Of a DNA stretch of 64,000 nucleotides, positions 48,571-52,475 are shown in pieces. Location: contig CAWBKB010000006.1 in NCBI GenBank assembly GCA_963789265.1, positions 1-64,000 on the forward strand. Direction: 5' to 3'. The position numbers and the translations under genes are program-made. Origin of the DNA: an uncultured delta proteobacterium (GTDB lineage Bacteria > Desulfobacterota > Desulfomonilia > Desulfomonilales > Desulfomonilaceae). How positions within the stretch are numbered: the stretch's first letter is position 1; each line of letters begins with the position of its first letter. The notes below the pieces were generated by a model that searched no databases, was not told where the DNA came from, and worked only from the letters and a program-made list of their open reading frames with translations.

Positions 48571-50277
48571 TCATGGTGCGGGACGTGTGGGCAAGGTCCC
48601 CGCAGCGGGTTGAATCGTGCAACCCTGGCGGTTTCTCGGGCGCATCCCGGAGACAATAGCGCGGCTAAGAGACGACAGCGGGAAGTAATCCTGTGCCACA
48701 GAGCGACCCGACTTCACCGGTCCGCTCTTTCTCACAATCGCACTCCATGAATGAGGTGCCACGCACTTTACGAAGGTGGGTTTTTCGGCCGCGAGGGGGC
48801 TTATTCGGAAACTGATCGCTTTGGACAATACCTGGGCAACCACTTTATGCCCGAACATGGTGTAGTGGTCTCCGAAGACATATCTGCCTGTCTCTTTTTG
48901 CGCATCAATAAGCGGCTCCAATAGTGAAATAAAGGGAATATTATTCTCACTGCAAAAACGAGTCACACGTCTAATAGATTTGCTCATGTCCCAAGTGATA
49001 GCCTTATGAGGTCCCCCCATAGCTTTGAGTCGCGAAATTGTCCCCACCGGGTCCAGAGCATACTTGACTTCAAGGTCTGAGCCCACGTAGACGAGCACAA
49101 AATTGATGCCGCGGGCACGACAGAAGTCCCTGGAGGCTACAACCTGATTCAAAGTGCGGGACCACGCGGCTTCTACCCTGGGAATGTCCTCGGCCGACCA
49201 CTGGAGCAAATCAGGCGATATGGCTATCCTATTCCTACGAATGTCATCAATTCGGCGCAAGGCAAAAGCCAGTGCCAAGTAGCCGTGACTGGCCAGTCGG
49301 CGGAATTCCGGTGTGATGCCGCCGGCAGCCAGTATCAATTCGGTCTTCAATTCGGGGTCGTCGCGACAAAAGTCGCTGGTGTATAGCGTTAGGACCACTG
49401 TGTCAGGGGTATAGAGCATGGCTTCGTCTCGTATAACCTTGAAATGTTCAATTTGTCCCGTGCCTGAATTGCCAAGCGCTATAACCTGGAACCTGCGGCG
49501 CGGTCCTGCAAAAGAAGGGTCATTCAAAGCGGCCTCCCACAGCTTATGAAAGCTTCGGGAGAGCGGGACCTGGACCGCCTCAACGTAGGAATCACCGACA
49601 ATGACAATGCGGTGAACGCCCGGAGGCTTTGGCAGAGCATAATCATCATCGAAATATCCCTTGGAGTTCCAATGAAATTCGTTGACGTATTTGAGCCTGG
49701 AGTTCGGATCGTACCCGTAGTAAATGAATTCCTCGTCCGGAGCGTGCCAAACTTTGAATCGGCTTTTTCGGTGATTGGATGAATCCGACGCATACCATCG
49801 CTTCTGATCCCCATTCCGGAACACAACGGAGCCAACCTGGCCTTTTCCCAGAGGCGAATTCACAAAAGATTTGGCCAGTTCCTTGGTTTGGGCATAGTCG
49901 GCCGGGAGGACCCACGGAAATGCGATCTCTAGAGCCAAGAGCGCTATCAATGCAAAATTCAAGCACAAGGAAGACGCCTTAGCCCAGGATAAGACCGCAC
50001 CGGCGCGCAACTTTCCCGCCAGTAGGACCGGCATCCTGCCGGTCCTCGAAAGGGATAAGGCTGCGCCCGCGTGCAACTTTGCCGCGGGGAGTAACAGAAT
50101 CAGGAGATTCGAGAGTATCAAAACGAGATAGATGAGCCATCCGCAATAAAGGTTATTATAAAGTACTGCAAAGAGGGCGATTGTCCCGCATAATGGAAGC
50201 AATCCACCCGCAGCCCCCACGATCACCGCACTCCGTCTCCATCCAAAGGACACCGCGACCATTGAAATTTCCCTCAA
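48571..50277 (-). CDS. Membrane-anchored SGNH hydrolase-like protein (AlgJ/AlgX-like)
   Basis: N-terminal TMs, NSKG..D, RIVIVGDSYVEA, C-terminal DHYT..GH. Confidence 0.75.
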   Translation of the reverse strand: MREISMVAVSFGWRRSAVIVGAAGGLLPLCGTIALFAVLYNNLYCGWLIYLVLILSNLLILLLPAAKLHAGAALSLSRTGRMPVLLAGKLRAGAVLSWAKASSLCLNFALIALLALEIAFPWVLPADYAQTKELAKSFVNSPLGKGQVGSVVFRNGDQKRWYASDSSNHRKSRFKVWHAPDEEFIYYGYDPNSRLKYVNEFHWNSKGYFDDDYALPKPPGVHRIVIVGDSYVEAVQVPLSRSFHKLWEAALNDPSFAGPRRRFQVIALGNSGTGQIEHFKVIRDEAMLYTPDTVVLTLYTSDFCRDDPELKTELILAAGGITPEFRRLASHGYLALAFALRRIDDIRRNRIAISPDLLQWSAEDIPRVEAAWSRTLNQVVASRDFCRARGINFVLVYVGSDLEVKYALDPVGTISRLKAMGGPHKAITWDMSKSIRRVTRFCSENNIPFISLLEPLIDAQKETGRYVFGDHYTMFGHKVVAQVLSKAISFRISPLAAEKPTFVKCVAPHSWSAIVRKSGPVKSGRSVAQDYFPLSSLSRAIVSGMRPRNRQGCTIQPAAGTLPTRPAP

Positions 50278-50872
50278 TTAGCAATATGTGCAAAAGCAAC
50301 GGGTGCCTTTTTGCTCACTACTTGATCCTTGTCAAGAAAAAAAAGCTTCCTTTTAGAGAGAAAATTCCCGGACGTTATGGCCATAATCTCTACCAGAGGC
50401 TCTAACGGATTTGACAGGCCCAAAAATAGTTCCGATCTTTTCGCTCTAATAGCTCTCGCAAGCTAAGACACAGCACGCGCAAACTTCTGCAATTTCATCC
50501 GGCTTCACAATCAATAACGCAAAAATTTTGGCCATTTCATGCCGCGCTTCCAAGCTTGTAAAATTGTCAATCACCGGTTCCGGCCGTCCCCCGCCGAGCA
50601 GCCGGCCACGCCACAGCCGTGGCGCTAACCTTACAGGCCCAAAAGTTGCCTCGATCAAGTACTAATCGCTCAGAAGCACACCAAATATCATCGAACCCTT
50701 TACCACCGATGTCAAGCAAATCGATGCCGCCAAAGCCGGCGAATCCCGAGAAAATTTAAAGATACAAGTTAGGTTTACATGATACTTGTTCTAGCAAAAT
50801 TAGTCAACTATTTAAAACTGGCGAAAAAAAACTTGACAAATCTTTGAGAGTGCTATTTAAGTCGTAACCGGA

Positions 50873-51132
50873 GGTTGGGTATGGGGTAGGTAATACAAGC
50901 GGTTGACAGTAAGGGGGGAGCTGCTCCTTTGACATCAACCGCGCGGATGAGAAGCAACTTGTGAGATGAGGGGGCACTAAATAAGGCTCTATAAACACGA
51001 AAACGGCATCTAAATGGCCGTTTTGCGTGTGTTCCACTGGGATGGAAAAGTATGTTGAGAAGTGCCCACCTCTTATCACACAAGATCCGGGTGTCAATCA
51101 AAAAATCTCCGATTGACCCCAAATATCCAGTT
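50873..51132 (+). ncRNA. Candidate structured non-coding RNA (~260 nt, unassigned)
   Basis: Ends pair with several G-U pairs on the + strand, plus five further helices. Upstream TTGACA/TGnTATTTA; no credible ORF. Confidence 0.5.
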
Positions 51133-51659
51133 CTTTATACCAGCCTGATATGATACACGAAACCGGCGAAGGCCCGCAGCGGCTCGATCCAGAGTATCCT
51201 ATCAACCTGTTTCTTTGCAAGAAAAAGACTCCTTAATTGTGATCATTCACTTACGAGCGGCGAAAGATTGTGATTGCGCCGTGGGGCGGACTTTCCAGTC
51301 CGCCAAATATGAGATGAGAAACCGCAGACTGGAAAATCTGCGCCACGAGCCAGTTAGCAAGGAGTTCAATTCAATCCGTTGGACGGGCCTCTTTCCCAGT
51401 TGGGATGCCTCGCGCCGAACGCGGGGTTGCCCGCCATCCACAATGGACAGGGTGTCTCGCGCCTCGCGGGACCTTCCCACCATTCATTCCTCGCGATGAC
51501 AAGGACCGTGCAACTTCCGGGCATTACTGAATGCCTACCCGGGGGCACAATACTTATCTCGCGAGTGCGGTCGGTAGGATGTGGTGAAACCCGCGGAACG
51601 CGCGAGAAAGCGCTTCGCTCACGCTAAAACGCCATAGATACGGTTCCCCGCTGCCAGCG

Positions 51660-51846
51660 CATAGGCGTTAACTTACCCCGCGAAACGCGGAGTTCCCCCC
51701 TTTCGTAAAAGGGGGCCAGGGGGGATTTTGGGATAACTACTTGAAAATCCCCCTCAATCCCCCTTTAGAAAAGGGGGACTTTGATCTCCCTCGGCCTGCA
51801 CGGACCTCCTGAAAAGGAACGAAATTGCCTTAAGTTAACGCCTATG
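51660..51846. mobile_element. MITE family 1, copy 3 (inverted)
   Basis: CATAGGCGTTAACTTA ... TAAGTTAACGCCTATG; the interior is the reverse complement of 8683-8860. Confidence 0.85.
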
Positions 51847-51950
51847 CGCTGCTCGCTGGATAACCAGATACTACGAGAGCTGCTTTCGCCAAGGCATCAT
51901 CCCGCCCCGTGAAAATTAAGTGTGGTGTCCCCAGAATTCGCCGGGTCTTG

Positions 51951-52475
51951 TCAAAAATCAAGGATTTCCGAAAGCTCTATTCCGAATCGTCGCCTCAGGT
52001 AGAGGTTTATGAATTCCATGATGGTGGGCTTGAACGGTTTGCGCACGAGGTACATGCTTGCTTGTCTGGGGGTGCGGCCCCCCTTCCTGATGTTACAAGC
52101 ACGGCAACAGGCCACTACATTGGTCCATTCGTTAGCTCCCCCTTGGACCTTCGGAATGATGTGGTCGATGGTGAGATCGCCCGAAGTGAACTCACGTCCG
52201 CAATATTGGCACAGATGAGAATCGCGGACGAGGATGTTCTTCCTGGAAAAAGGGACTTCGCGTCTATAGATCTGCCGGATGAACTTGATGAGGCGGATTA
52301 CCGCGGGAATCCGAAAGGTCCGGGTCACGGTTCGGACAATCCTGTCGGATTCCTTCACCACTTCCACTTTCCCGTTGAACAGAAGCAGCATAGCGCGTTG
52401 CCATGAAACCAACCCTATAAATTCATAGCCCGCATTCAGGACTATGACCGCCTCCATGGATGACATCTGGTACAT
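51951..52475 (-). CDS. HNH endonuclease (standalone, McrA-like)
   Basis: VLNAGYE, PAVIRL, RD..CQYCG, TIDHIIP..GG..WTNVVACC..CN.RK. Confidence 0.93.
   Translation of the reverse strand: MYQMSSMEAVIVLNAGYEFIGLVSWQRAMLLLFNGKVEVVKESDRIVRTVTRTFRIPAVIRLIKFIRQIYRREVPFSRKNILVRDSHLCQYCGREFTSGDLTIDHIIPKVQGGANEWTNVVACCRACNIRKGGRTPRQASMYLVRKPFKPTIMEFINLYLRRRFGIELSEILDF

Follow-up and report, generated by a model that had tools for sequence, protein, structure and literature searches.

The window analyzed here is a 64,000-nucleotide (nt) stretch of DNA from an uncultured delta proteobacterium of the family Desulfomonilaceae (assembly GCA_963789265.1, contig CAWBKB010000006.1, positions 1 to 64,000; we refer to this genome as G000). 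Positions 50866-51135 of its forward (+) strand very probably hold a genuine, conserved gene for a noncoding RNA (ncRNA), which we call type 1 and which is the subject of this report. Downstream, no gene follows on the + strand, as an earlier note made from the sequence alone had stated; the next conserved gene, which encodes a small HNH endonuclease, is convergent. The same note described a 1.7-kb gene-free interval at this place. The length is correct, but the interval really consists of the RNA gene plus two blocks of dispersed repeats, which fill 51230-51500 (11-27 genomic matches) and 51650-51860 (32-66 genomic matches). The blocks, inserted between the RNA and HNH genes, account for the length of the interval. 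The RNA stretch is distinct from the local repeats and single-copy in the 6.06-Mb assembly, in agreement with the reported lack of a match to repetitive extragenic palindromic (REP) or miniature inverted-repeat (MITE) families. The features of the locus are listed here, with P1 to P6 denoting helices.

50789-50794, + strand: upstream promoter element TTCTAG, followed by AAAATTAGT; it recurs at a similar distance upstream of the promoter of an outer-membrane protein (OMP) gene
50833-50861, + strand: promoter, with -35 hexamer TTGACA at 50833-50838, a 17-nt spacer and TTTAAG at 50856-50861; an A tract at 50824-50831 precedes it
50866-51135, + strand: predicted type-1 RNA, ~270 nt, based on fold z-score and single-copy status, with both ends predicted
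50868-50886, + strand: 5' motif CCGGAGGUUGGGUAUGGGG, resembling a Shine-Dalgarno sequence plus AUG and the OMP leader sequence CUGGGAGGAAGGGUUCAAUG; it overlaps the 5' strand of P1
50899-50942, + strand: P2 hairpin with cap, in the lineage-variable 5' domain; two compensatory pairs within the genus
50959-50977, + strand: 5' strand of P3, whose partner is 51062-51083; lineage-specific complementarity
50990-51107, + strand: ultra-conserved core, matching covariance models R1 and R2 (136.8 bits)
50995-51030, + strand: P4 hairpin with the invariant loop AUCUAAAUG at 51008-51016; covariation
51032-51047, + strand: P5 hairpin UUCCA-CUGGGA-UGGAA, homologous to CUGGGAGGAA of the OMP leader
51048-51064, + strand: translation-start-like motif AAGUAUGUUGAGAAGUG, with AUG at 51052-51054
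51065-51080, + strand: variable pairing segment, then the conserved CCUC-UUAUCACA
51091-51106, + strand: GUGUCAAUCAAAAAAU box, the A tract of which serves in other genera as the distal arm of a two-way terminator common to the RNA and HNH genes
51093-51130, + strand: P6 hairpin (51093-51117) and 3' strand of P1 (51117-51130), kept within the genus only
51951-52475, - strand: convergent, syntenic HNH endonuclease gene, 171-174 amino acids (aa), matching Pfam HNH_5 and HNH

The minimum free energy fold of the + strand of 50865-51140 contains all six helices named in the earlier note. At -97.3 kcal/mol, it lies well below dinucleotide shuffles of the same sequence (-75 ± 4.85 kcal/mol; z = -4.60), none of which folded as well in 200 trials. 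BLAST searches with the stretch found matches in 23/24 genomes of the same family and in 0/16 of the sister family; outside the genus, these matches were limited to query positions ~190-307 (window ~50989-51106), at 81-96% identity. The core has 58 invariant columns among 24 sequences from 19 genera. Covariance model R1, built on 117 positions of the core and including P4 and P5 only, gave type-1 matches of 110-141 bits in 67/70 family genomes, which represent at least 23 genera. The three family genomes lacking a type-1 match are 73-94% complete and are broken into 320 to 1100 contigs each. R1 matched 0/52 sister-family genomes, and the broader model R2 matched 0/148 genomes from 75 other families of the phylum. 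Records of homologues include ones named Desulfomonilaceae or Desulfomonile. This is a new RNA family that is confined, as far as we searched, to one bacterial family, whose members are related to sulfate reducers.

Comparison with Rfam, proposed in the earlier note as a check, matched no family, so the class is unnamed. Rfam 15 gave no match at gathering scores over the whole window, and at E ≤ 10 over 50200-52000 there were only chance-level microRNA-type matches, outside or marginal to the RNA. The reported lack of RNase P, transfer-messenger RNA (tmRNA) and signal recognition particle (SRP) signatures holds at the locus. RNase P RNA is encoded at G000:C1:1989630-1989993 and tmRNA at L057 2316-2641; SRP RNA was not searched for separately elsewhere. 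A literature search for Desulfomonile small RNAs turned up work on tRNAs only. To our knowledge, almost no regulatory RNAs have been described in this phylum, to which type 1 adds a well-supported, unnamed structured family with a ~117-nt core.

The P4 and P5 helices covary. Over 84 cores (67 of type 1 and 17 of a paralogous RNA, type 2), 95.7% of cells were paired and five pairs changed on both sides, a result that 0/500 shuffles reached. The closing pair of P4 covaries among AU, GC and GU, P4 also shows AU versus CG between the paralogues, and P5 shows CG versus UA between type 1 and type 2. Several of these double changes separate the two paralogues and therefore count as single events. The alignment of seven sequences from the genus supports P2, with its compensatory pairs, and P3, whose core is retained with changes of the G-U type. 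Pairing there amounts to 88.9% for P1, in which all changes are one-sided, and to 77% for P6. Of the helices proposed in the earlier note, these two held only within the genus. P1, P2 and P6 are unalignable outside the genus, and the 5' domain varies between genera in both sequence and length. Since the 5' domains do not align, MAFFT and RNAalifold applied to full-length RNAs from 24 genomes recovered P4, P5 and a 3-bp GAG/CUC helix and nothing more. The 5' motif CCGGAGGUUGGGUAUGGGG is kept in most genera and is absent or altered in g3, g9, g11, g17 and g28 (g-numbers denote genera).

The segment at 51062-51072 pairs either with a lineage-specific G-rich strand located 9-19 nt before the core, forming P3, or with a local partner before GUCAAU. 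Among 21 genus representatives, P3 formed with an RNA's own segment had an energy of -17.75 kcal/mol versus -15.63 kcal/mol with segments from other genera, and 0/5000 permutations were as low. For the local hairpin, the corresponding values were -8.91 and -8.10 kcal/mol (permutation p = 0.053); it is strong in some genera, which suggests that it is used there as an alternative to P3. Pairing of the 5' motif with CCUC(A/U)UAUC was also considered. It was the best predicted partner in 6/21 genus representatives, but we rejected it because, by eye, the A/U difference is uncompensated.

The promoter-like site that the earlier note placed upstream was found as TTGACA-17 nt-TTTAAG, with its end reading TATTTAAG at 50854-50861. 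It was missed by a scan for sigma-70 consensus promoters, as its second hexamer does not resemble TATAAT. The sequence TTGAC(A/T) occurs 94-166 nt 5' of the core in 67/67 type-1 copies and is mostly followed by TTTA(A/G) 16-17 nt further on. Many helix positions in the genus alignment are G-U, which would be C-A on the opposite strand. Given the conserved promoter and the G-U pairs, we assigned the RNA to the + strand. A terminator-like hairpin with a U run lies 3' of the core in 24/67 copies. Together with the lack of a same-strand gene downstream and of an Rfam match, these features bear out the proposal of an independently transcribed + strand ncRNA of unnamed class, and an own promoter with no same-strand gene behind it is also what is expected of a trans-acting, base-pairing small RNA (sRNA).

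Contigs from RNA libraries, 153-264 nt in length and one per metatranscriptome run (four runs from four studies), cover the part of close relatives that corresponds to 50983-51143. As these are assembled contigs and DNA carry-over is possible, they give weak support for expression and are uninformative on transcript ends or strand. Only 5-10% of sampled words were present in the RNA runs, and the flanks of the core were uncovered in the four runs.

Type 1 is noncoding. We considered and rejected an open reading frame starting at the AUG at 51052: such frames range from 1 to 68 codons, at least 20/67 have 10 codons or fewer, and 12/67 copies have no AUG. Insertions and deletions of one and two bases occur across homologues in P4 and before CCUC. 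Owing to one-base length differences, the UAUCACA box falls in frame 0, 1 or 2 relative to the AUG in 21, 23 and 23 genomes, respectively.

The RNA shares a sequence with OMP genes. GUAUGUUGAGAAG, which type 1 and its paralogues all carry in a hairpin or linker, is the sequence that spans the Shine-Dalgarno site and start codon in the paralogous OMP genes of the family. A scan with the motif, allowing one mismatch, returned a 363-aa OMP paralogue at its true start region (GGAGGAAGGGUAUGUUGAGAAGA, which reads MLRRIPSTPLVC...), together with two truncated copies. GGAAGGGUAUGUUGAGAAG starts this 363-aa paralogue, which ends in ...FGFIF, and GGAAGGGUUCAAUGAGAAG starts a 373-aa OMP; the type-1 element is nearly identical to the former start and close to the latter, as a mimic or decoy competing with these mRNAs would be. 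The 373-aa protein weakly matches an outer-membrane beta-barrel family. Its promoter and leader are nearly invariant across genera, the terminal hairpin loop of the leader holds AUGAGAAG, and the hairpin shows compensatory changes (AAGGG/CCCUU versus CAGGGC/G(C/U)GCUG). The type-1 and OMP promoters have one architecture, TTCT(A/C)G..AAAATTAGT..A/T tract..TTGACA-N17-TTTAAG. A parallel change also links type 1 to the OMP genes: the OMP start region is AAUGAUAAGAAGC in g28 and AAUGAAAAGAAGC in g11, and the type-1 motif has changed alike, to AAUGAUAAGAAGCG and AAUGAAAAAGAAGCG, respectively.

The OMP leader itself (L057:690-830; 42 matches) comprises a CCCAG/CUGGG hairpin and a start-codon hairpin, and it seems more conserved than the protein (42-72% identical). 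From the sequence comparisons, something sequence-specific probably acts on this leader. Antisense pairing with it was rejected: RNAduplex energies for types 1, 2 and 3 were -52.0, -52.7 and -33.6 kcal/mol versus shuffled means of -52.0, -50.8 and -35.6 kcal/mol.

Two kinds of paralogue accompany type 1, and each of types 1, 2 and 3 contains one of the three exact genomic copies of the 14-mer GUAUGUUGAGAAGU. Type 2 appeared as a second, weaker full-length R1 match (32-55 bits) in at least 47/70 family genomes, in this genome at G000:C5:679321-679441, and it has P4, P5, GGGUAUGUUGAGAAGU and UAUCACA in common with type 1. It lies directly after the stop codon of the 373-aa protein, which has a signal peptide and ends in ...GGFVEAGLIF; a full or nearly full homologue of this protein stood upstream in 15/16 type-2 loci that we fetched. 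In addition, type 2 has a conserved 5' module, and the 12-bp helix that closes it shows two compensatory changes. Type 3, a short unit, lies upstream of the OMP gene and has a TTGACA promoter of its own. The order type 3, OMP gene, type 2 is also found in two other assemblies (L113 and L119).

In this genome, the type-2 unit is L057:1862-2145 (G000:C5:679161-679444), and it converges on the tmRNA gene, which was the only match when Rfam was searched at E ≤ 1 with three type-2 loci. Its 5' module is ~165 nt long, contains two copies of UGAAUGUCC and is closed by GAAUGGCGCCGG/CCGGCGCCAUUC (the compensatory changes are among 16 sequences); the core of P4, P5 and motif follows, with a U run downstream. 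A second type-2 5' module, at G000:C8:11705-11822, has no P4/P5 core behind it, so the module can exist independently. In genome G072, a tandem pair of type-2 copies follows the OMP gene (L060:1860-2266), and in L070 a motif fragment lies upstream of a type-2 copy. Type-3 units are located at L057:227-350 (G000:C5:677526-677650), G000:C8:11524-11650 and G000:C4:117700-117840 (- strand). They consist of a TTGAC(A/T) promoter and a hairpin, AAGGGUAU/AUACCUUU, with the loop GUUGAGAAGU, and they look like truncated 5' ends of OMP paralogues. An exact scan for the 14-mer in a wider collection of contigs gave at least 123 stretches. Searching 80 of these loci with R1 yielded three real matches, two more loci were type-3 units by eye, and the rest were chance matches.

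We tentatively read type 1 as a regulatory RNA acting by mimicry of the OMP start region; this is the explanation that we favor. The type-1 gene would have been recruited from a duplicated cassette of OMP promoter and leader, and the RNA would be co-expressed with the OMP mRNAs and act post-transcriptionally in their circuit. With the conserved P4/P5 helices as scaffold, it would display the OMP start region in a copy that is not translated, and this copy might compete for a factor that recognizes the start region of the mRNA, be it a protein repressor, an antisense RNA or the 30S ribosomal subunit. The parts of this proposal differ in strength: the sequence relationships are demonstrated, and the mechanism is inferred. 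That type 1 belongs to the OMP circuit at all strikes us as an even call, and that it acts as a decoy is possible, if doubtful. Three paralogous RNAs and at least two major OMP genes with one promoter cassette and one start-region hairpin would form the circuit. It looks as though 5' ends of duplicated genes have given rise to sRNAs here, and as though these exert control through sense-strand mimicry and not through antisense pairing. If true, the mimicry would provide a clear example, beyond the Csr/Rsm systems, of a decoy for an mRNA start region.

Known systems resemble parts of this proposal. GlmY and GlmZ are a homologous sRNA pair, one of which acts as a decoy by mimicry; like them, type 1 is one of several paralogous ~150-300-nt RNAs with a common structured module, for which we propose mimicry and competition for a common factor. 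However, there is no sequence or Rfam relation, type 1 would mimic an mRNA start region and not another sRNA, and it is restricted to one family of the phylum searched. The CsrB and RsmZ sRNAs carry many short GGA loops, and the likeness is that of an ncRNA holding copies of a regulator's site in the Shine-Dalgarno region of target mRNAs. Type 1 differs in having one long site per RNA and few GGA sequences, none of them repeated in loops. Its P5-loop CUGGGA is CUGAGA or another non-GGA sequence in type 2, and Rfam gives no match. MicA, MicF and RybB are antisense to the start regions of OMP mRNAs, and like them type 1 is a small RNA with its own promoter that is tied to the start regions of major OMP mRNAs. 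Unlike them, it has the same sense as the start region, its duplex with the leader is no better than shuffles, and it is far longer and more structured.

Several observations weigh against our proposal. Some concern the gene itself. The - strand of 50865-51140 has a z-score of -6.53, better against its own shuffles than the + strand, so fold energy leaves the strand unsettled. The second promoter hexamer, TTTAAG, is atypical, and a canonical terminator was found in 0/7 genomes of the window's own genus, with none at 51100-51200. Others concern the mimicry. Predicted ensembles leave the start-like motif only moderately accessible (mean unpaired probability 0.55), and the strong GGAGG Shine-Dalgarno sequence found in the OMP genes has decayed to GGGAUGGAA in type 1, where P5 takes up part of it. 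Mimicry leaves the invariant P4 loop, UAUCACA and GUCAAU unexplained. The parallel change in g28 and g11 represents one or two events, so co-evolution and gene conversion both fit, and type 2 is unchanged in the same two genera. The likeness to the OMP start could reflect common descent only, the present function being unrelated.

Such an unrelated function might be that of a trans-acting base-pairing sRNA, in which the P4 loop AUCUAAAUG, UAUCACA or the 5' motif is the seed for pairing with mRNAs that have no relation to OMP genes, the OMP-like motif being a leftover. We regard this as unlikely, yet worth serious consideration. The promoter, the terminator-like 3' ends and the A-rich linkers, of the kind that chaperones bind, would suit such an RNA, as would invariant loops with high predicted accessibility (mean unpaired probability 0.76 for P4 and 0.64 for P5). 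However, no target stands out: 10-mer complements of six conserved segments were seen 2-27 times in the genome, near the ~12 that we calculate for chance, and the P4 loop had one 12-mer complement, at C6:391481. Some 90 invariant bases are also far beyond what a seed requires, and the start-region motif kept in three paralogues would be left unexplained. Descent from an OMP gene would likewise be compatible with a relic or small gene, that is, with the decayed remains of the 5' end of an OMP gene duplicate, its 33-codon frame still translated, or with a functionless transcript. The motif is indeed a true start region in the OMP paralogues, other truncated copies exist at C4:117774 and C8:11585, and a frame of 33-34 codons is open in all seven genomes of the genus. 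Against this stand the identity and invariance of the core across genera, which are far above neutral decay, the loss of the frame or its AUG in many copies and of the strong Shine-Dalgarno sequence, and the different frames that one-base length changes give the UAUCACA and GUCAAU boxes between genera. We judge this explanation improbable. The earlier note had suggested a long 6S-like RNA, which here would be a second one binding RNA polymerase. Some bacteria have two 6S RNAs, and type 1 is reminiscent of 6S RNA in its size (200-300 nt), apparent stability and own promoter and in P1, which joins its 5' and 3' ends in this genus. The suggestion did not survive, because RF00013 has no match here at E ≤ 10 and the canonical 6S RNA is elsewhere (124 bits, G000:C1:1162120-1162300). 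Instead of a rod with closing stem and central bubble, the fold is multi-branched; P4, P5 and their flanks, a branched 3' core, are alone conserved across genera, and P1 is not conserved outside the genus. A cis-regulatory leader of a neighboring gene, either riboswitch or attenuator, could be suspected from the complex conserved fold just 3' of a promoter and from the start-like motif after the P4/P5 scaffold. But the window has no same-strand gene downstream, nor is one next in other genera, where the next gene converges (63/67 genomes); only a non-conserved short frame follows the motif, and there is no Rfam riboswitch match. Both the 6S-like and the cis-leader explanations fail the tests run here and are extremely improbable.

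The remaining alternative makes type 1 the RNA partner (scaffold, guide or substrate) of the neighboring HNH nuclease. The gene for this 171-aa protein is convergent downstream of type 1 in 63/67 genomes and 22/23 genera (median gap 109 nt), whereas the upstream neighbor of the RNA gene is conserved within the genus only. The distributions match as well: an HNH orthologue is present in 69/69 other family genomes, and in 52 sister-family genomes there was no orthologue-level match (the best had 42% identity over part of the protein). The models that fit the HNH domain best are those of Cas9d (48 bits) and IscB (46 bits), but these scores are far below the respective cut-offs of 375 and 175, so this is a likeness at the domain level only. 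HEARO, the omega-RNA of IscB, is similarly a structured RNA of ~200-300 nt adjoining an HNH-domain gene. However, type 1 has no Rfam match to it and is non-mobile, with one copy at a fixed place in the family, and its neighbor is 171-174 aa with HNH domains only and no RuvC and is convergent. The RNA also has no variable, guide-like end beside a constant scaffold. In several genera (e.g., g28, g5 and G023), the RNA and HNH genes have a two-way terminator in common, the A tract of which is the conserved A6 after GUCAAU, and this arrangement could alone preserve their adjacency. In g17 (three genomes), the two genes are on different contigs and both are retained, and types 2 and 3 have no HNH neighbor. 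A role as partner of this nuclease is quite improbable, and we consider it very improbable that RNA and protein together form a minimal, non-mobile RNA-protein nuclease with the core as its scaffold. If they did, the paralogous RNAs at the OMP locus would guide this protein to OMP transcripts or genes or tether it there. The pairing of the RNA with a small HNH gene is tight and family-wide.

The HNH protein is 67-93% identical across genera, and within the class its orthologue was found in this family only. Identity is at least 75% for each of its best 120 relatives in the database, and those with an organism name are Desulfomonile, including Desulfomonile tiedjei, or its relatives. The first ~80 residues of the protein have no family match, and an AlphaFold2 model based on a shallow alignment was poor (mean pLDDT 57.7, pTM 0.44). 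On the other side of the RNA gene, a divergent 568-aa open reading frame (48571-50277, - strand) has no Pfam or NCBIfam match, and its adjacency to the RNA is kept only within the genus. The gap between the end of the core and the HNH stop codon is 165-169 nt in 5/6 other genomes of the genus, 842 nt here and ~2.2 kb in G001.

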